Shown here in pieces: positions 1 to 15,275 of a stretch of 34,104 bases of DNA (position 1 is its first letter; the number at the start of each line of letters is the position of its first letter). Both the position numbers and the translations under genes were made by a program. The notes under the pieces were generated by a model. It was not told where the DNA came from. It did no database searches and saw only the letters and a list, made by a program, of their open reading frames with translations. The stretch is from Pseudoduganella sp. Its GTDB lineage: Bacteria > Pseudomonadota > Gammaproteobacteria > Burkholderiales > Burkholderiaceae_D. Location: NCBI GenBank assembly GCA_036386715.1, contig DASVVD010000364.1:1-34104 (forward strand), in the 5' to 3' direction.

Positions 1-137
1 GGACGCGTCGTCGATGCTGGGATCGGTGAATCTGCGACCTTGAGCATCGTACCAATTCTCCCTCCAAGGCACGCTGCATAAAAGTTGAATGCTTCTTCGC
101 ATTCGCCGTTGTAGTCAATGTGAAATGCCAAGCTCAT
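1..137 (-). CDS. VOC/PhnB-like (glyoxalase superfamily) protein, partial; 3' end runs off the window
   Basis: Not in the ORF track. Manual translation from the ATG at 137 gives MSLAFHIDYNGECEEAFNFYAACLGGRIGTMLKVADSPIP..., matching the PhnB/VOC N-terminal pattern xxNGxCEEAFxFYxxxLGG. Confidence 0.75.
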   Translation of the reverse strand, partial: MSLAFHIDYNGECEEAFNFYAACLGGRIGTMLKVADSPIPASTTR

Positions 138-189
138 GGTCAATTGTGAGTTCGTTGTGGTCCTGTTGATGGTGACATTCGTCAGCGCG

Positions 190-247
190 GTCTGCTTATG
201 GCGATTGCTACCGTCCAGTGTACGACAGCTTCCGCCCCTAATCAGAC
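190..247. repeat. Palindromic inter-gene repeat, copy 1
   Basis: GTCTG(190-194)...CAGAC(243-247) terminal inverted repeat; internal pairs GGCG/CGCC, GCT/AGC, CGT/ACG; core CTACCGTCCAGTGTACGACAGCTTCCGCCCC at 208-238. Confidence 0.8.
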
Positions 248-546
248 GTGGAGCCACTTTCTTTCGTCAACCGCGAGGATCTATACGCAAGGAAAAACAG
301 TAAGCAAGCTTGCGCCAAACCACAGAGGATTGCCCAGCCAACTTGGGCGAAGGGTAGCGAGAATAAGCTTGGCCAAGCTGTGTGCAAAGGGCTGACAGAA
401 AGCGACGAGGGCAAAGTTAATGCAAAAAGCACAACATCAGGTAATAGATGTTCCCGCTGCGAGTGAAGGAGCGTCGAGTCCACATAGAGTGCCCAGCACG
501 CCGCAAGTAACACGACAATTAAATAGACTCTAGCAAATATACCCAT
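238..546 (-). CDS. Small hypothetical membrane protein (about 3 hydrophobic segments)
   Basis: 102-aa ORF with hydrophobic stretches; GAGAG just upstream of the ATG; its TAG stop (238-240) lies inside repeat copy 1. Confidence 0.6.
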   Translation of the reverse strand: MGIFARVYLIVVLLAACWALYVDSTLLHSQREHLLPDVVLFALTLPSSLSVSPLHTAWPSLFSLPFAQVGWAILCGLAQACLLFFLAYRSSRLTKESGSTSD

Positions 547-622
547 CTCTCGTGACCGTGCTTTCTAGTTGACTGGTGAACGTCAAGACCGAGCGTGACT
601 CATACGGTTTGGAATCTTGAAC

Positions 623-681
623 GTCTGGAATTGGCCGCTTTCTGCCGTCTAGTCCACGACAACTTCCGCCCCATTGTGGAC
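623..681. repeat. Palindromic inter-gene repeat, copy 2
   Basis: Core 642-672 CTGCCGTCTAGTCCACGACAACTTCCGCCCC matches the copy 1 core at 26/31 positions; flanked by TTGAACGTC(617-625)/GACATTCAA(679-687). Confidence 0.8.
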
Positions 682-944
682 ATTCAACTCACGCTTTGTG
701 ATGCAAAAGATCATTCCACAGTCGGCCAAGTTGAACTCATCATTGATAGAGTCAAGCTGAGCGTAAAACGACATATCTTGCCACATGAACATGTGGGAAT
801 GTCGTCTGCTTGGATAAGATCCGGCTTGCCTCCGAGACGGTGACGCTTGCCGATGTCGTCGCCTGCCCACTTGAATGAGGGTAGAGCAGCGGCTTTCTGA
901 TCAAGGGGCGCCGGGGTCAACTTGAATGGTGGTATAGGTCGCAT
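649..944 (-). pseudogene. Frameshifted YwqG/DUF1963-like small protein gene
   Basis: The 944 frame reads ...HRLGGKPDLIQADDIPTCSCGK and the motif continues in another frame as MSFYAQLDSINDEFNLADCGMIF. The junction GGC AAG AT ATG TCG (about 772-782) is one base short of in-frame. The reading ends inside repeat copy 2. Confidence 0.65.
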
Positions 945-1023
945 GATGCACTTCGTTCGTTCTAAGGAGTTGTTCGGTAATCACAAGCTATGGAGAGGGG
1001 CGCCATGTCTGCTATGGCTCCAT

Positions 1024-1080
1024 GCCGGCTCGGTTGTCTGTTGCCGTTCAGTGTCTGTCCGTTTCCGCCCCAAACCGGCC
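1024..1080. repeat. Palindromic inter-gene repeat, copy 3
   Basis: Core 1041-1071 matches the copy 1 core at 23/31 positions, including exact TTCCGCCCC (1063-1071); terminal GCCGG(1024-1028)/CCGGC(1075-1079). Confidence 0.7.
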
Positions 1081-1126
1081 CTTCACCTGCAGGATAAAGA
1101 CTGAACTTGCGTCATCTGATTACTCA

Positions 1127-1549
1127 CTACACGTCATGCTCGAAATCATCGACGTAATAAAAATCTAAATCGATGGAAAGACCAAGTTGCGCGGCTTGCC
1201 TTATTTGTTCACGGTCAAAATGTGCTCCGTGGCCGGCCGCTGGAAAGTACCCCACGCATTGAAGCTGAAGATCGTAATCTATCCAAAGTTCTCGAATAGC
1301 TTCGGCCTTGCGGTGAAGTACAAGGAAGAGACCTTCAATGTGTTGAGTTAGCGGTATCGTGTCGTCGAACCCGCTGCTGAGTCGCCAACTCATGAAGCTG
1401 CGCGGTTTTCCATTTCTTGGATTCTCGTCCCCGACATTCCACGCTTCTGAAGGACTTAGGCCAAGAATGCTAGTAATAGTTTCGTGTAAGCCAGGGCCGG
1501 TAATTCGGAGATAGGCATACTCGCGACACGTCAGCGGTGGTGAAGTCAT
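1127..1549 (-). CDS. DUF4279 domain protein
   Basis: 140 aa; AYLRITG...ITxxLGLxP...W..GD...W.L.S and C-terminal LGLSIDLDFY pattern; AGGAG RBS upstream. Confidence 0.75.
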   Translation of the reverse strand: MTSPPLTCREYAYLRITGPGLHETITSILGLSPSEAWNVGDENPRNGKPRSFMSWRLSSGFDDTIPLTQHIEGLFLVLHRKAEAIRELWIDYDLQLQCVGYFPAAGHGAHFDREQIRQAAQLGLSIDLDFYYVDDFEHDV

Positions 1550-1580
1550 TGCACTCCTGTTGCGTTTTCAAGCGTTGAAT

Positions 1581-1641
1581 GGCCCGTTTTGGGCCGAAAG
1601 CTACCGGTCGGTATGACTCAGTCTACGACCTTGTTGCCGAC
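1581..1641. repeat. Palindromic inter-gene repeat, copy 4 (most diverged)
   Basis: 1601-1631 aligns ungapped to the copy 1 core at 18/31 (GCTACCG shared); preceded by TTGAA as in copy 2; ends in GAC like copies 1 and 2. Confidence 0.55.
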
Positions 1642-1787
1642 AGGACAAGCTGCAGGGCGCCTGCCGCTCTGTTTGTTGAGGCATTCAATATTGGTAGGTG
1701 ACGGACTATTTCACTTTGTGGCGAACTTTGCTAGCGGGCCACAACAGCACGCGTACGCACTTGAAATGCTCAGCGTGCTTCATCATG

Positions 1788-1886: not shown

Positions 1887-4070
1887 TCAGAACCGGTAGC
1901 GCAGCGTGGCCGACACGCTGCGCGGTGCCTGGTACGTGATCGCGTTGAAGGCGGCAAACATGGCGAAGTGCTTCTTGTCGAACGCGTTGTCGATGTTCAG
2001 CTGGGCCGACAGGCGGTCGTTGATGTCGTAGCGCGCCATCAGGTTGACGAGGGTGAACGCCGGCTGCTCGATCATGATGCTGGGAGTATCCGCCGTCTTT
2101 GGAGCGAGCGTCCAGGTACGGCTCTCCCAGTTGGCGCCGCCGCCCACCGTCAGCTTGCTCAGCTCGCCCGGGAAGCGGTAGGTGGTAAACACGCGGAAGG
2201 TCTTGCGCGGGTAGATGCTGTTGAATTGCGTGCCGTTCGATTCCTCGGCCTTGAACCAGGCAAAGCCGGCGGTGGCGTTCCAGCCGCGTGCCAGCTCGCC
2301 CGACAGTTCGGTCTCGAAGCCCTTGCTTTCCGCGCCGTCCGCCGCGCGGTAGTAGGTTTCCGGCAGCGTGGTGCCGGGAACGGTACGGGTGTCGACTTCC
2401 ACGCCGAGCTTGTCCTGCTGGATGCGGAAGACCGAGAACTGCGCATTCAGGCGGTTGTTCAGGAATGCGCCTTTCACGCCGGTTTCATAGCTCTTGCCGA
2501 CCACCGGATCGAGCAGGTTGCCGTTCACGTCCTTCAGGTTCTGCGGCTGGAAGATGTCGGTATAGCTGGCGTAGGCCGACCAGTTGCGGTCGATGTCGTA
2601 GACCAGGCCGGCATACGGCGTCACTTCGCGGTCGTTCTTGATCGCATAGGCGGCGGTCCACAGGCCATGGCCGGTTTTCTCGTAATTGCTGACGCGCGCG
2701 CCGATGATCAGTTTCAAGGGATCGGCCAGCGAGAAGCGCAGCACGCCATAGAGCGCTTCCTGCCTGGTTTCGCTGCTTTCATAGAACGTGCGTGCGCCCC
2801 AGCTCGGCCGAGGGTAGGCGCCCGGGTTGAAGCGGTTGAAGTCGCCGACGGCGGAACTGACGTCGCCGTAGTCCGCGGCGCGGCTGTCGGAATTGAATTC
2901 CTGCTTCGAATGCAGGTAGCCGAATGCCGCCTCGTGCTGGCGGCCGCCCAGCGCGAACGGGCCGCTGGCGTGCAGGCTGAAGTCGTCCTGCTTGACGCGC
3001 GTATTGTAGGAGCCGGAGAAAGCGGACATGCCCAGGCCGGTCACGCGGTCGGGAATGCCCGACAGGTACAGCAGGTAGGTGTCGCCCTTGCGGTCGCCGC
3101 GCGTATACGAACCGCGCACTTTCCAGCCGTTGGCGAAGTTGTGTTCGAGATTCACGAAAACATTGTCGTAGCTGCTGCTCCAGGTGGTCCAGTCGGCAGC
3201 CGTGGTCTTGGAAACATCCCAGTTCGTCTTCGTGCCATCCGTGTAGTAGTAAGGCAGGCCGCCCCACATCGAGCCTTGCGGATCAGTTTCCTGGCGGCTG
3301 GCGCCGGCCGACAGCAGCGTGCCGGGCCCCAGGTCTGCCTCGATCGTGGCGTAGACTGTCTTGTCCTTGTTCTTCAGGGCATCGACCCAGCTGTCGGCCT
3401 TGCGGTACTCGCCGACCACACGGGCGCGCACGCTGCCCGATTCATTCAGTGCCGTCGACACGTCGGCCATCGCACGGCGCTCGTTCCAGCGGCCGATGGT
3501 CACTTCTGCGGTGCCGGCCAGTTCCTTGCTGGTGGCGCGCTTGCGCACCAGGTTGATCGCTGCGGACGGGTTGCCGGCGCCGGTCATCAGGCCGGTTGCG
3601 CCGCGCACGATTTCCACGCGCTCGTAGATCGCCAGGCTCCCCAGCGTCTCGCCGGCGCTCCACGACTGTTCCCACGTCGTCGGAATGCCGTCGATCTGCA
3701 GGTTGGTGATGTCGAAGCCGCGCGCGGTAAATCCGGCGCGGTGCGTTTCATACTGGTTCACCGAGACGCCGGTGGCGTTGTTGACCACGTCGGTGATCGT
3801 GGCCAGGCCCTGGTCCTCGATGCGCTCGCGGGTGATCACCGAGACCGCCTGCGGCGTTTCGCGGATCGACAAGTCCAGCGGCGTCGCGGTACCCACCACG
3901 CGCGTGGTGTAGCCGGTATCGCCTTCCTTTTGCGCCTGCACTTCAACCTGCGGCATCACGGGCTGGGATTGTTCGGCCACCTGGGCGAAAGCGGCCAGGG
4001 GCAGGGCCAGGCCCGCGTAAAGGGGAAAGCGGGCCAGCTTGCGGGCGGCGGCGCGGGAATTCTTCTTCAT
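1887..4070 (-). CDS. TonB-dependent ferric-siderophore receptor (FhuE/FpvA-like)
   Basis: Signal peptide; plug motifs LSIRETPQAVSVIT and YERVEIVRGATGLMTGAGNPSAAINLVRK; C-terminal LNIDNAFDK...YRF. Start placed at MKKNSR (4070); the ORF is open to 4112. Confidence 0.92.
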   Translation of the reverse strand: MKKNSRAAARKLARFPLYAGLALPLAAFAQVAEQSQPVMPQVEVQAQKEGDTGYTTRVVGTATPLDLSIRETPQAVSVITRERIEDQGLATITDVVNNATGVSVNQYETHRAGFTARGFDITNLQIDGIPTTWEQSWSAGETLGSLAIYERVEIVRGATGLMTGAGNPSAAINLVRKRATSKELAGTAEVTIGRWNERRAMADVSTALNESGSVRARVVGEYRKADSWVDALKNKDKTVYATIEADLGPGTLLSAGASRQETDPQGSMWGGLPYYYTDGTKTNWDVSKTTAADWTTWSSSYDNVFVNLEHNFANGWKVRGSYTRGDRKGDTYLLYLSGIPDRVTGLGMSAFSGSYNTRVKQDDFSLHASGPFALGGRQHEAAFGYLHSKQEFNSDSRAADYGDVSSAVGDFNRFNPGAYPRPSWGARTFYESSETRQEALYGVLRFSLADPLKLIIGARVSNYEKTGHGLWTAAYAIKNDREVTPYAGLVYDIDRNWSAYASYTDIFQPQNLKDVNGNLLDPVVGKSYETGVKGAFLNNRLNAQFSVFRIQQDKLGVEVDTRTVPGTTLPETYYRAADGAESKGFETELSGELARGWNATAGFAWFKAEESNGTQFNSIYPRKTFRVFTTYRFPGELSKLTVGGGANWESRTWTLAPKTADTPSIMIEQPAFTLVNLMARYDINDRLSAQLNIDNAFDKKHFAMFAAFNAITYQAPRSVSATLRYRF

Positions 4071-4144
4071 TTTTTTTGTCCAGTTGGCGGTGGGCGCGGC
4101 ATGCAAGGGCACTACGCACCGGTAGTCATTTACTCAAGAACGTG

Positions 4145-4173
4145 AATGATAACGATTCGCATTCTTAAGTCAA
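4145..4173 (-). promoter_or_regulatory. Fur box overlapping a sigma70-like promoter
   Basis: AATGATAACGATTCGCATT (4145-4163) resembles the Fur consensus; minus-strand TTGACT(4173-4168)-N16-TATCAT(4151-4146); lies upstream of a siderophore receptor. Confidence 0.75.
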
Positions 4174-4225
4174 GATAAACTATTTAACTGGACAGCAATT
4201 TTTGCATCAGCGGAATTTGCAAGGA

Positions 4226-4266
4226 TGAGCCCGTGTCAGGGTGCCTGGCCCCATGACACGGGCTCA
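4226..4266. terminator. Stem-loop at the 3' end of the sugar operon
   Basis: Perfect 13-bp inverted repeat TGAGCCCGTGTCA/TGACACGGGCTCA just after the Gfo/Idh/MocA stop codon; no clear U tract. Confidence 0.55.
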
Positions 4267-4271
4267 GCAAT

Positions 4272-5444
4272 TTACTGCAACGCCGTCCAGCGCGACCCGG
4301 CCCGATCGCTTTCCAGCACCGCATCGATGAACTTCATCCCCGCCACGCCATCATCCACGGTCGGCAGGTCGGCGGTCTCCGGAGAGACGGGCTGGCCGGC
4401 GATCACCGCGTGAATGCGCGCCGCGGCATCGCGGTACAGCTGCGCGAACGCTTCCAGGTAGCCTTCCGGGTGGCCGGATGGCACGCGCGTGGCATGTTCG
4501 GCCGCCGCCCCGCGCACCCGGCCACGGGTCAACCGCTGCGCGCTGCCGCCCTGCGGCGTGAGCCACAGCTCGTTCGGATTCTCCTGGTCGAACGCCAGGC
4601 TGGCCTTGCTGCCGAACACGCGCAGCTTCAGGGCGTTTTCGCAGCCGGTCGCCATCTGGCTCGACCACAGCATGCCGCGCGCGCCGTTCGGGTAGCGCAG
4701 CATCACCTGCACGTGGTCGTCCAGCACGCGGTCCGGCGTGAACGCGTGCAGCTCGGCCAGCAATTCGTTCGGCTGGATGCCGCTGACAAAACCGGCCAGG
4801 TGGAACGCGTGCGTGCCGATGTCGCTGGTGCAGCCGGTGGGGCCGGCCCGCTCTGGATCGTTGTGCCAGTTGGTGCGCTGGAACTCCTCGCTTTGCGGGC
4901 CCGCCTCGGCCATCCAGTCCTGCGCATACTCGACGTGCACCAGGCGCACCTCGCCGATGGCGCCGGTGGCCACCAGCTCGCGCGCATGCCGCACCATGGG
5001 GTAGCCGGTATACGTGTGGGTGAGGGCGAACACCCGGTTTTTCTCGCGCGCCAGCGCGGCCAGCGCCTCGCCCTCGGCGGTGGCGATGCCGAGCGGCTTG
5101 TCGCAGATGACGTGGATGCCGGCTTCCAGGAAGGCCGTGGCAACCGGCGCATGCAGGTAGTTCGGCGTGACGATGGCCACGGCGTCGATGCCGTCCGGCC
5201 GTGCGGCTTCGGCGCGCGCCATCTCGCGGTAGTCGGTGTAGCAACGCGACGGGTCGAAGCGCAGCGCCGTGCCGCTGGCGAGCGCACGTTCCGGATTACC
5301 GGACAGCGCGCCGGCCACGACTTCATAATCGTCGTCGAGCCGGGCGGCGATGCGGTGCACGGCGCCGATGAAGGCGCCGTCGCCGCCGCCGACCATGCCG
5401 AGGCGCAGCTTGCGGGGGACGGTCGTCGATACGGTCTTCGTCAT
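4272..5444 (-). CDS. Gfo/Idh/MocA family NAD(P)-dependent oxidoreductase
   Basis: LRLGMVGGGDGAFIGAVHR, IVTPNYLH, HVICDKP, DIGTHA. Start at MTKTVS (ATG 5444) overlaps the upstream stop (ATGA). Confidence 0.92.
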   Translation of the reverse strand: MTKTVSTTVPRKLRLGMVGGGDGAFIGAVHRIAARLDDDYEVVAGALSGNPERALASGTALRFDPSRCYTDYREMARAEAARPDGIDAVAIVTPNYLHAPVATAFLEAGIHVICDKPLGIATAEGEALAALAREKNRVFALTHTYTGYPMVRHARELVATGAIGEVRLVHVEYAQDWMAEAGPQSEEFQRTNWHNDPERAGPTGCTSDIGTHAFHLAGFVSGIQPNELLAELHAFTPDRVLDDHVQVMLRYPNGARGMLWSSQMATGCENALKLRVFGSKASLAFDQENPNELWLTPQGGSAQRLTRGRVRGAAAEHATRVPSGHPEGYLEAFAQLYRDAAARIHAVIAGQPVSPETADLPTVDDGVAGMKFIDAVLESDRAGSRWTALQ

Positions 5445-6496
5445 GCTTCGAGTCCCATCAGGTTGCGCAGCGCGGCGCGGTCGGTGCCGCTGCCGGCGAA
5501 ATCGTCGAAGGCCCGGTCGGCCACGCGGATGATGTGGCGGCGGATGAAGTCCGCGCCTTCGCGCGCGCCGTCCTCCGGGTGCTTCAGGCAGCACTCCCAT
5601 TCCAGCACGGCCCAGCCGCTGTAGTCGTACTGCGCCAGTTTCGAGAAGATCGCCGTGAAATCGACCTGGCCGTCGCCCAGCGAGCGGAAGCGGCCGGCGC
5701 GGTCCACCCAGCCGTTGTAGCCGCCGTAGACGCCTTGCCGGCCATCCGGCCGGAACTCGGCATCCTTCACATGGAAGGCCTTGATGCGTTCATGGTAGAT
5801 GTCGATGAACGCCAGGTAGTCGAGCTGCTGCAGCAGGAAGTGGCTCGGGTCGTAGAGGATGTTGGCGCGCGGGTGATTGCCCACGCCTTCCAGGAATCGT
5901 TCGAACGTCACACCATCGTGCAGGTCTTCGCCGGGGTGCAGCTCGTAGCATATGTCCACGCCGGCATCGTCGAACACGTCGAGGATCGGCTTCCAGCGCC
6001 TGGCCAGCTCGCCGAACGCTTCCTCGACCAGGCCGGCGGGGCGCTGCGGCCACGGGTACAGGTAAGGCCAGGCCAGCGCGCCGGAAAAGCTGGCTTGCGT
6101 GGTCAGTCCCAGGCGCCGCGACGCCTTGGCCGCCGCCTTCATCTGCTCGACCGCCCACGCCTGCCGTGCCTGCGGCTTGCCGCGCACGTGCGGCGCGGCG
6201 AAGCCGTCGAACAGCTGGTCGTACGCGGGGTGCACGGCCACCAGCTGGCCCTGCAGGTGGGTCGACAGTTCGGTGATCTTCAGGCCGTGCTCGGCCAGCA
6301 CGCCGGTGATCTCGTCGCAGTAGGTCTGGCTGTCGGCGGCCTTGTCCAGGTCGATCAGGCGCGGGTCGGTCGGCAGCTGCACGGCTTTGTAGCCGAGGCC
6401 CTTGGCCCAGCCGGCCAGGTTGGCCAGCGTGTCGAACGGCGCCTCGCCGCCCATGAACTGGGCGAGGAAGATCGCCGGTCCCTTGATGGTCTTCAT
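5441..6496 (-). CDS. Sugar phosphate isomerase/epimerase TIM-barrel protein (IolE/xylose-isomerase-like), cytoplasmic
   Basis: MKTIKGPAIFLAQF start; metal ligands in YELHPGED, YDPSHF, FHVKDAE and VLEWEC. Confidence 0.9.
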   Translation of the reverse strand: MKTIKGPAIFLAQFMGGEAPFDTLANLAGWAKGLGYKAVQLPTDPRLIDLDKAADSQTYCDEITGVLAEHGLKITELSTHLQGQLVAVHPAYDQLFDGFAAPHVRGKPQARQAWAVEQMKAAAKASRRLGLTTQASFSGALAWPYLYPWPQRPAGLVEEAFGELARRWKPILDVFDDAGVDICYELHPGEDLHDGVTFERFLEGVGNHPRANILYDPSHFLLQQLDYLAFIDIYHERIKAFHVKDAEFRPDGRQGVYGGYNGWVDRAGRFRSLGDGQVDFTAIFSKLAQYDYSGWAVLEWECCLKHPEDGAREGADFIRRHIIRVADRAFDDFAGSGTDRAALRNLMGLEA

Positions 6497-6523
6497 GCTG
6501 ATCCTTGACTAAAATTGTAAATG

Positions 6524-7471
6524 TCAGTACGGCGAATTCGGGTAGTAGAACTGGCTGGCGTTGGCGCGCGTGATCAGCACCGACGGGATGATCGTCTGCG
6601 CCGGCAGCGCCTCGCCCTTCAGCCGGGCGTTGGCGGTCATCTTGATCGCGTCGTAGATGAACTTCGGCGAGTAGGAAACGTTCGCCTGGATCAGCTTGTC
6701 GCCATCGAGCACCTTCTTGACGGCGAACTTCGCACCGGCGCCGCCGAACACCTCCTGGATGTCGGTGCGTTTGGCCTGCTCGATCGCCTTCAGCGCGCCG
6801 ATCGCCATGTCGTCGTCGGCGGCCCACACGGCATCGATCTGCTTGAAGCGCGTCAGGTAGTCCTGCGTGACCTTGAACGCATCGTCGCGGTTCCAGTTGC
6901 CATATTTCGCATCGAGCACCTTGATGCCCGGGTGCTTCTTGATCTCGGCATTGAAGGCATTCACGCGTTCGTTGTCGATGGTGCTCGGCATGCCGCGCAG
7001 CACCACGATATTGCCCTTGCCGTTCAGCTTCTTGGCCAGGTACTCGGCCGGCAGGCGGCCGAAGGCCGTGTTGTCGCCGGCCACATAGGCGTTCTGCGCC
7101 GCCGGGCTGGTCAGGCCGCGGTCCACCACGGTCACGTACACGCCCTTGTTCTTCACCTGGGCCACCGGCTGCGTCAGCGATGCCGATTCCAGCGGCAGGA
7201 TCACCAGCGCATTCATCTTGTTCACCACCAGCAGGTCCTGCACCTGGTTGGCCTGCTCCGGCGTGCTGCTGGCCGTCTTGACGATGATCTTCAGGCCCGG
7301 ATTGGCCGCTTCCAGTTCCTTCTTGGCCTGGTTGGCCCACCAGACGATGCCGCCGGTGAAGCCGTGCGTGGCGGTGGGGATCGCCACGCCGAGCGTGACG
7401 GGTTGCGCTGCAAAGCCTTGGCCGGCGGCGGCCAGCAGGCAGGCGGCGACGATACGGTTCAGTGTAAACAT
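6524..7471 (-). CDS. Sugar ABC transporter substrate-binding protein (RbsB-like)
   Basis: Signal peptide; [28 protein letters not shown]. Confidence 0.92.
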
Positions 7472-7489
7472 GGGGTTTCCTTTGAAATG

Positions 7490-8504
7490 CTAGCGGCGGC
7501 CACGCTGCAGGTAGGCCACGGTAATGATGACGACACCCTGCACGGCGGCGTTCAGGTACACGCTGATGATGCTGGTGAGGTTGAGGATATTGCCGATCAC
7601 GGACAGCAGGATGGCGCCGATCACGGTGCCCATGATGCGGCCCGAGCCGCCCTTGAGCGAGGTGCCGCCGACGACGACCGCGGCGATCGCTTCGAGCTCC
7701 CACAGGATGCCGGTGGTCGGCGTGGCCGAGCCCAGGCGCGGCACGTAGAGGATGGTGGCGATCGCCACGCACACGCCCAGCAGCAGGTAAGTCAGCGTCT
7801 TCACGCGGTCGACCCGGATCGTCGCATAGCGCGCCACCTGTTCGTTCGAGCCGATCGCCTGCACGTGCTGGCCGAACGGCGTGCGGTTCAGGATGACGAC
7901 GCCGGCCAGCGCCACCAGGGCGAAGATCCACACCGGTACCGGCACGCCCAGCACGCTCTGGTAGTACACCGGGCCGTAGGTTTCCGACAGGTTGAAATCG
8001 AGCGTGAGGGCGCCGCCGTCGGACAGCCAGGTGAGCACCGCGCGGAAGATGCCCAGCGTGCCGAGCGTGACGATGAACGGTTCGATACGCCCATGGGTGA
8101 CCAGGAAGCCGTGCGTGACGCCGGCCACCGCGCCGAATGCCAGCGCGAGCGCGATACCCAGCACCACGATCGCGAACGGGGAGGGCGGCGTGGCGCCCAG
8201 GGCCAGCGCGTTCATGGCCACGATCATTACGCCGGCGATCAGTGCGGCCATCGAGCCGACCGACAGGTCGATGCCGCCGGAGGCGATCACGAACGTCATG
8301 CCCACGGCGATGATGCCGATGAACGCGGTGCGGGTGAGCACGTTCATCAGGTTGTCGAACGTGGCGAAGCCCGGGTTCAGCAGCGCGCCGGCGATGCACA
8401 GCAGGACCAGCGCAATGATGGGGCCCGCGCCTTTGAATCGGGCCAGGCGGGAGGCTGAATGCGCTGGAGGTTTCAGGCGCGCGGAAGGCAGGGCGCCGCC
8501 CGTG

Positions 8505-8527
<23 letters not shown>
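7490..8527 (-). CDS. Sugar ABC transporter permease (RbsC-like)
   Basis: [45 protein letters not shown]. Confidence 0.93.
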
Positions 8528-9995
<1,468 letters not shown>

Positions 9996-9997
9996 GG

Positions 9998-10840
9998 CTA
10001 TTGCGCCGGCAGCCCGGCGATCACCGCCTGCAGGCCCTTCAGCGAAGCGGCCACGGTTTCCAGCTGGCCCATGCCGTTCGGGTATTCCTCCTGCTCGATG
10101 ATGATCCAGTCGGTGCCACCCTCCCGCCGCACGGCGCGCGTGAGGCCGGCCCAGTCGGTCTTGTCCTGGCCGATGATCGGCGTGCCCGTGCTGCCCTCGG
10201 CGAATTTGGCCTTGAAGTGCGTGGTGGTGGTGCGGCCCGGGTACTTCTTCACGTAGGCCACCGGGTCCTTGCCGGCATAGGTGGTCCAGCCCACGTCCTG
10301 CTGCATGATCGAGGCTTTCGGCGTGTTCTGCGCGATCACGTCCCACGGCGTGCTGCCGACGGCGCCGGCGAATTCCTCCGAGTGGTTGTGGTAGCCGATG
10401 CGCATGCCCTTGCCGGCCAGGCGGCCCGACAGCGCCGTCAATTCCTTGCTCATCTCGGCGCTGCCGGCGGTGGTCTTGCCGCGCGCATCCATCGAGATGA
10501 CCAGGTTCGAGCAGCCCAGCGTCTTGTAGAAGGCCGTGGTGGCCTCGAATTTGGCATCGGCCAGCGCGTCGAAGTGCATGTGCGCGCCGGCGCAGGCCAG
10601 CTTGTTCTTCTCCAGGAAGGCTTTCAGGCCGGCCGGGTTGTCCTTGTACGGCCCGAATTCGCCGGCGAATTCCACGCCGTCGAAACCGAGCTTGCCGATC
10701 TTCGACAGCGTGCCCTCGAAATCCTGCTTGATTTCATCCTTGACGGACCACAGCTGTACACCGAGGCGGGGCTGCGCCGCCTGGGCCAGCGTGGCGCTGC
10801 CGGCCAAGGCCAGCAGGGCGGCAATTTTTGTAATTTTCAT
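9998..10840 (-). CDS. Exported sugar phosphate isomerase/epimerase-family TIM-barrel protein
   Basis: C-terminal part of the 9998..12415 ORF. MKITKIAALLALAGSATLAQAA signal peptide with GGAG RBS; GVQLWSVK, GYHNHSEEF, QQDVGW, HFK, IIEQE. Confidence 0.88.
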   Translation of the reverse strand: MKITKIAALLALAGSATLAQAAQPRLGVQLWSVKDEIKQDFEGTLSKIGKLGFDGVEFAGEFGPYKDNPAGLKAFLEKNKLACAGAHMHFDALADAKFEATTAFYKTLGCSNLVISMDARGKTTAGSAEMSKELTALSGRLAGKGMRIGYHNHSEEFAGAVGSTPWDVIAQNTPKASIMQQDVGWTTYAGKDPVAYVKKYPGRTTTTHFKAKFAEGSTGTPIIGQDKTDWAGLTRAVRREGGTDWIIIEQEEYPNGMGQLETVAASLKGLQAVIAGLPAQ

Positions 10841-15209: not shown

Positions 15210-15275
15210 AAAAACCCGGGACAGTCCCTGGTTTCTAGGAAATTTCCTCAAAACAAGGGACTGTCCCGGGTTTTT
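15210..15275. repeat. REP-doublet-like inverted repeat, probable bidirectional terminator
   Basis: AAAAACCCGGGACAGTCCCT (15210-15229) and its exact reverse complement (15256-15275), between convergent genes; each arm contains the palindrome GGGAC-N-GTCCC. Confidence 0.75.

Follow-up and report, generated by a model that had tools for sequence, protein, structure and literature searches.

The DNA analysed in this work, hereafter the window, is a stretch of 34,104 nucleotides from Pseudoduganella sp. that makes up the entire contig DASVVD010000364.1 (C364) of a draft genome (G000; 6.3 Mb, 1142 contigs). Its left end carries an array of small genes, all on the minus strand, separated by copies of a palindromic repeat of about 60 bp; we deal here with this repeat, with the genes that it separates, and with a small tyrosine recombinase encoded in related genomes, for which the repeat likely provides the recombination sites. 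The original prediction, made from the letters of the window, had reported four repeat copies, and their coordinates, their common orientation, and their strict alternation with single minus-strand open reading frames were all confirmed on recheck. The 31-bp cores match copy 1 at 26, 23, and 18 of 31 positions, TTCCGCCCC is present in three of the four copies, and the GC content of the region is lower (0.51 over positions 1-1700 vs 0.66 for the remaining window). The array cannot be traced leftwards because the window is the whole contig, and no contig carrying it on to the left was found in G000.

The analysis of 20 regions fetched around covariance-model matches in relatives revealed that the 60-bp copy is a compound structure, consisting of two palindromic sites of about 24-30 bp, L and R, which face each other over an 11-bp linker and which are each formed by inverted arms flanking a 6-bp core of their own. 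The count of four copies holds in this respect for copies 1-3, whereas copy 4 resolves into an R site (1582-1605) and a separate conserved leader (1606-1670). The features of the array are the following, with the scores of the position weight matrix (PWM) of the sites and with protein lengths in amino acids (aa):

1..137, minus strand: 5' part of a vicinal oxygen chelate (VOC)/glyoxalase (YjdN/PhnB-like) cargo gene, truncated at the contig end; DNA 87% identical to the gene at locus L049
190..212, plus strand: R site of copy 1, probably defective; outer arm 190-197; core one base short; identity with the L049 homologue ends at 202
213..223, no strand: 11-bp linker of copy 1
224..247, minus strand: L site of copy 1; PWM score 29
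238..546, minus strand: DUF7942 membrane-protein cargo gene, 102 aa; Pfam PF25637
623..646, plus strand: R site of copy 2; PWM score 15.7
647..657, no strand: 11-bp linker of copy 2
658..681, minus strand: L site of copy 2; PWM score 22.6
690..944, minus strand: third cargo gene, broken; two overlapping frames, frameshift near 776, 3' end altered near 708
1007-1030: further weak site-like stretch beside the R site of copy 3
1023..1045, plus strand: degenerate R site of copy 3, placed by alignment and not scored by the PWM
1057..1080, minus strand: L site of copy 3, at which the DUF4279 module is exchanged; PWM score 21.7; the match of run X3 begins at 1063 and that of run X7 ends at 1078
1127..1549, minus strand: DUF4279 cargo gene, 140 aa; PF14106
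1582..1605, plus strand: R site at the array head (earlier "copy 4"); PWM score 18.1; the match of the X3 contig ends at 1592
1606..1670, minus strand: array-head leader with promoter-like hexamers at 1648-1643 and 1625-1620, separated by a 17-bp spacer and pointing into the array

When 371 distinct sites are compared, conservation is symmetric around the core, which occupies positions 9-14; the R core reads TGGCCG in 215 of 250 sites and the L core GGG(G/T)CG in 89 of 121, figures that are inflated because the sites were selected by PWM. The two sites are polarised with respect to the genes, genes beginning on the outside of R in 167 of 198 cases and terminating on the outside of L in 89 of 102. 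The distance between L and R spans from 8 bp up to a complete recombinase gene; among 50 L-linker-R elements, the middle part measures 8-12 bp in 23, 51-55 bp in another 23, and 35-85 bp in the remaining 4. Moreover, several relatives harbour lone R sites between genes and an L site only at the array tail.

Searching the source genome with a profile of the four copies returned 10 matches, which became 11 once the search was iterated; these copies, distributed over five contigs, all fall in low-GC runs of small co-oriented genes. The raw PWM count over the same genome is unspecific (125 matches vs 84 with the reversed matrix) and, therefore, only clustered low-GC sites were trusted. The covariance model located the repeat in 13 of the 119 genomes of the genus, and positions 1-1700, searched as DNA against 301 family genomes (two candidates scored per genome), identified three other genomes. 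No Rfam family was matched at E<1 over positions 1-2000; plasmid searches gave no match with the leader and one weak gene match with the array; and, of the nine relative loci fetched for the TonB-receptor gene, none has the repeat at this position.

The point at which DNA is exchanged was mapped on flank-sharing pairs drawn from 627 sites. Eight site pairs that are alike only in the outer flank keep their identity through position 14 and lose it at position 15, while 128 (non-independent) pairs alike only in the inner flank are at background level to position 8 and alike from position 9; the crossover, therefore, lies in the core. Five of the nine cargo blocks shared between loci have at least one end inside a site core; five further pairs that had been retrieved represent flanking genes or a fragment of the enzyme and were not counted. 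As for the window itself, a 787-base contig of run X3 matches positions 1063-1592 with 8 differences (98.5% identity), and its DUF4279 module has a 55-bp-type linker upstream, which replaces the leader of the window, and another linker downstream; a contig of run X7 matches positions 708-1078. Genes occur with different linkers on both sides, and the VOC homologue of L049 is devoid of the 33 inner bases of copy 1, which leaves a linker-less site. Both the DUF4279 and the DUF7942 gene have homologues in R-site arrays, where their neighbours are different; a protein 73% identical to the former lies between R sites in genome G107, and the latter has six homologous loci in relatives, five of them with R sites beside the gene. 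The idea of a cassette shuffling that makes no use of attC sites is thus upheld, since cargo varies between strains, breakpoints lie inside the repeat, and no match to the IntI model TIGR02249 exceeds the cut-off in the source genome.

These breakpoints also bear on the possibility that the repeats resemble repetitive extragenic palindromes (REP) or miniature inverted-repeat transposable elements (MITE), spread by a transposase, and that the genes arrived separately by other routes. Short palindromes are indeed dispersed over several loci, and three matches to Y1 transposases of the REP-associated tyrosine transposase (RAYT) type (PF01797) exist elsewhere in the source genome. However, the three matches are located on contigs without arrays, the repeats occur exclusively in head-to-tail gene runs of low GC, and the identity between shared genes stops inside the repeat and not at its outer edge. 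We regard this explanation as barely credible, the core-centred breakpoints having already largely refuted it.

Two other observations concern the sites. A 151-base piece in run X8 joins the R site and linker of copy 1 to the L site of copy 3 (229 to 1063), as would be expected after two cassettes were lost; with 28 bases on the shorter side, it was not used as evidence. Furthermore, an insertion sequence (IS) with a DUF772/DDE transposase, which we take to be of the IS1182 type, and its non-coding derivatives of about 170 bp sit exactly inside site cores (L049:5680-7220 and, in the source genome, C402:655-831, C876:6529-6700, C1055, C414, and C478); the full IS in L049 has the GGCC of the core on both sides.

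The original prediction had envisaged a folded single-stranded recombination site, in which case the true substrate would be an attC-like hairpin formed jointly by L and R on one strand. The 60-bp consensus can fold to two stems with bulges, and two-sided changes are present at 6 of the 15 predicted pairs. The minus strand, i.e., the cassette strand, had been said to fold better; it folds at least as well in nine of nine copies and better in eight, but copies 2 and 3 do not depart from shuffles (z of -0.1 and -0.7). Co-variation is seen between the inner arms of short elements (p=0.007, n=23), a signal that is expected if linkers travel as whole units. In contrast, the covariation term of the alignment is unfavourable (+0.51), and the flanks of the 50 L-R elements show no co-variation (p=0.45). 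The complementarity of the ends within each copy, which had been interpreted as a sign of hairpin selection, also finds no support, since the match between the outer arms of an element does not exceed that of permuted partners (p=0.18, n=50). The absence of co-variation between L and R ends argues against a folded site; moreover, the two palindromes are separate, lone R sites and gene-sized L-R intervals occur, the linkers differ, crossovers fall at both cores, and genes do not retain their downstream repeat. The hairpin hypothesis appears highly improbable in the light of these data. As for the ends typical of attC sites (RYYYAAC...GTTRRRY), their predicted absence was confirmed, no paired set being found on either strand in the four copies of the window.

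The window encodes no recombinase, as the original prediction stated; a candidate enzyme was found outside it, in relatives. In genome G033, an L and an R site enclose the gene of a small tyrosine recombinase. The sample considered consists of 80 loci of relatives (the best 80 of 122) and of the 27 of 119 genus genomes with a match, flanking sites being scored with matrices built from other loci. Of the 22 genus loci, 12 have an inward-facing site upstream of the gene (always R, at 148-164 bp) and 7 have one downstream (always L, at 49-52 bp), vs 2/22 and 0/22, respectively, for away-facing sites. In other taxa, inward-facing sites lie upstream in 21/74 and downstream in 20/75 cases, vs 2/74 and 3/75 for away-facing sites and 2.3% in distant windows. 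Arrays extend outward from the recombinase gene in L061, L189, L192, and L200.

The reading frame of the recombinase is intact in 92 of 102 cases and codes for 197-217 aa (about 208 aa). Among the intact frames, the catalytic R and the HxxR motif are always present (92/92 each), while H occurs in 90 and Y in 86. PF00589 is the only Pfam match of the protein; its residues 36-184 align to residues 132-279 of XerD without any long insertion, and the catalytic domain of XerH was likewise aligned without an insertion. The structure model (predicted local distance difference test score, pLDDT, of 79) retrieved XerA, Cre, and XerH in a Foldseek search, with Cre and XerA at the top. By its motifs and modelled fold, the candidate enzyme is a tyrosine recombinase made up of the catalytic domain only. 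It scores 22.6 bits against TIGR02249 (cut-off 265) and matches a 198-position invertase model weakly (22 bits, cut-off 222). According to the portions of PMC8138268 available to us, simple tyrosine recombinases typically combine a core-binding with a catalytic domain, and no subgroup resembling the small recombinase was seen in those portions. We also observed two intact recombinase modules within one array of genome G123 (L192:1071-1697 and 4304-4930), and a small H-NS-like gene that often adjoins the module (L189:8440-8727, with a PF00816 match; L200:6200-6490; L092:6808-7137; L185:986-1309).

One could argue that host XerC/XerD, or another chromosomal recombinase, serves the sites, as happens for pdif sites, and that the small recombinase is mere cargo. 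The arm-core-arm layout, the 6-bp core, and the alternating orientation are indeed those of pdif in the consulted parts of PMC10132070, and complete site-bearing genomes without the small enzyme exist. Nevertheless, an XerD arm is missing from the sites: when the 11-bp arm given in the table of PMC10132070 is compared in register, the best match covers 2-4 of the 11 positions in 337 of 371 sites and 7 at most. Fixed spacing, orientation bias, and linker homology, moreover, link the sites to the small recombinase, so that a service by host Xer seems very unlikely.

The linker homology emerges from the comparison of the 55-bp linkers with a profile of the region upstream of the recombinase gene: 28 of 29 linkers exceed the 99th percentile of shuffles, and 19 still do so without the -10 box. 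Facing the cassettes, the motif TGnTAnnnT occurs in 25 of 29 linkers and in 12 of 14 recombinase upstream regions, vs 0/29 for the opposite strand and 5% for shuffles. The 55-bp linker, and with it the 110-bp repeat variant, is thus homologous to the upstream region of the recombinase gene, the variant being a deletion relic of the recombinase module that keeps an outward promoter-like motif. The 11-bp linker of the window has the same flanking sites as the recombinase module and resembles the -10 region of the leader, and it might descend from that module as well.

The leader profile gave 13 matches, every one directly before an R site, and the 1.5 kb upstream are free of sites in 13 of 15 leaders. 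The hexamers of the window leader agree with the consensus at 8 of 12 positions, under the threshold of the promoter scanner. In several leaders (window 1640-1690 and others), the first element, ahead of the promoter-like hexamers, is a short inverted motif that resembles the GTTRRRY/RYYYAAC cores of integron sites.

The relationship between linkers and recombinase module might also be explained by a recombinase-only mobile element of about 750 bp, of which the 60- and 110-bp repeats would be non-autonomous miniatures, the arrays being nested insertions at a hotspot and not a selected cassette platform. This is suggested by the recombinase module occupying the position of a linker with the 110-bp variant as its deletion relic, by the linker-less site upstream of the same VOC gene in L049, and by the occurrence of the enzyme on 343 plasmid records, including those of Escherichia, Klebsiella, and Vibrio. 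On the other hand, the arrays consist of single, polarised genes, many of them rely on lone R sites without any miniature element, a dedicated leader heads them, and the gene modules themselves change context, with ends in cores; we thus consider such an element unlikely. Concerning the plasmid records, in locus L206 (E. coli plasmid NZ_LR999867.1) a recombinase homologue has a divergent inward-facing site just downstream and more site-like stretches nearby.

Taken together, these data make it likely that L and R are double-stranded recombination sites of the small recombinase, which would excise, insert, or swap gene units by joining like core with like core. Recombination between direct repeats, either R x R or L x L, would move gene-plus-linker units, both together would swap a gene module, and the different R and L cores would keep the genes co-oriented, while the leader and the 55-bp linker might act as outward promoters, analogous to Pc. 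The arrays of the source genome would be enzyme-less orphans because a recombinase lying between its own sites is deletable, or visits on plasmids. With modest confidence, we incline to a broader interpretation, according to which the system is an independently evolved analogue of integrons spread over the Proteobacteria: a minimal recombinase placed between its own two incompatible double-stranded sites would build polarised single-gene arrays, with many orphan immunity proteins among the cargo, at a promoter-bearing head, the relics of its module would persist as portable promoter linkers, and a plasmid-borne enzyme would reactivate the orphans.

Several results weigh against L and R being the sites of the small recombinase. 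No copy of the small recombinase was found in the source genome (a draft of 1142 contigs), nor any recombinase match in six site-bearing genomes assembled in one or two contigs (G037, G041, G043, G061, G099, and G130). Among 401 Proteobacterial genomes, sites were detected in 37 by one strict pattern, which overlooks divergent sites and whose reversed control gave about one match, and the recombinase was detected in 67; the enzyme is present in 8 of the 37 site-positive vs 59 of the 364 site-negative genomes. Hence, the co-occurrence of sites and enzyme at the genome level is weak and provides no support for a link between them. In addition, 10 of the 22 genus loci have no upstream site above threshold, the promoter scan gave nothing at 9 of 12 consensus matches, and three of the nine shared cargo blocks do not end at sites, while one does so in one partner only. 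Lastly, the sole linker-less site (L049) has 9, not 8, bases between its outer boxes, and slippage therefore fits it better than an in-register crossover. Self-deletion and plasmid delivery would account for the site-bearing genomes that are devoid of the enzyme.

Regarding the cargo, the 170 genes located directly behind R sites have a median length of 130 aa, and 109 of the 150 proteins scanned have no Pfam family; seven of the 150 are of the immunity type (barstar, SMI1/KNR4, SUFU, Imm33, Imm53, and CdiI). The labels originally assigned to the genes of the window were only in part correct: Pfam recognises the DUF7942 membrane protein and DUF4279, the VOC assignment comes only via the L049 homologue (which matches PF00903/PF06983, and NF007537 only below cut-off), and the YwqG-like label of the third gene was not confirmed, this gene being frameshifted and truncated and having no Pfam match over the cut-off. 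In the contig of run X7, which has one more base at 776 and another 3' end, the frame of this gene is unbroken. The same sugar-dehydrogenase-like gene adjoins the array tail in contig C876 of the source genome, in L048, and in L057, with different cargo, and C414 of the source genome and L046 have another flanking gene in common; such recurring genes at array ends are possible hotspots.

Beyond the array, the window carries at 1887-10256 an ordinary cluster composed of a TonB-dependent receptor gene followed by genes for a sugar ATP-binding cassette (ABC) transporter, an isomerase, and an oxidoreductase, and, at 15210-15275, a near-perfect 33-bp inverted repeat without spacer. The stretch 1759-1800, between the leader and the terminator of the TonB-receptor gene, is common to unrelated contigs in two runs and to genome G005, is present in a single copy in the source genome, and looks like the remnant of an IS terminal repeat.

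The system resembles integrons and attC clusters without an integron-integrase (CALINs), as presented in the excerpts at hand of PMC8618304 and PMC4889954, in having arrays of single co-oriented accessory genes that vary between strains and are separated by recombination sites. Further common features are a tyrosine recombinase that frequently lies in divergent orientation at the head of the array and has an outward promoter-like motif, the existence of arrays without the enzyme, and a cargo that mostly belongs to no Pfam family. Unlike those of integrons, however, the sites show neither paired attC ends nor hairpin covariation, they have two specificities with the crossover in a 6-bp core between inverted arms, and they bracket the recombinase gene itself; the better-folding strand is the cassette-sense one, unlike the bottom strand of attC. 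The catalytic domain of IntI contains a specific insertion of about 35 residues, according to the same excerpts of PMC4889954, whereas the enzyme described here is devoid both of this insertion and of an N-terminal core-binding domain.

The likeness to the pdif/dif modules of Acinetobacter plasmids, limited to what is given in the available parts of PMC6449649 and PMC10132070, concerns the sites formed by arm, 6 bp, and arm, their alternating orientation, and the swappable modules. Both types of site are also targeted by a specific IS family, the IS in the cores being paralleled by IS1202 at pdif sites. Unlike pdif, the sites analysed here have GC-rich arms, none of them an XerD arm, together with two fixed cores and a strict gene polarity; many arrays are chromosomal, and a dedicated, linked recombinase takes the place of host Xer. 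Invertases of the size of FimB/FimE and heterospecific cassette exchange of the Cre/lox type rely on a short or simple tyrosine recombinase and on inverted arms around a directional core, and two incompatible cores permit module exchange. The system shares with both the recombinase type and the site layout, and it differs from FimB/FimE invertases in forming arrays of captured genes and not a single switch. In short, it works like an integrase-less integron (CALIN) and is built like pdif modules, and it fails the defining tests applied for both. No description of it was found in the literature covered, subscription journals being mostly outside this coverage, and the small recombinase is apparently undescribed. 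The repeat may overlap with one of the intergenic repeat families of Pseudomonas fluorescens (PMC2718517).

A question that follows from these data concerns what such a system would mean for the bacteria harbouring it. The textbook platform for gene capture is the integron; if our interpretation is true, bacteria would possess a second, integron-independent way to collect and shuffle genes, a parallel system that is invisible to integron tools because these search via IntI and attC. A recombinase of 208 aa with two natural incompatible cores would, in addition, represent a compact cassette-exchange tool. The system could account for many of the low-GC runs formed by small orphan genes, and the immunity-type cargo points to a role in interbacterial competition.

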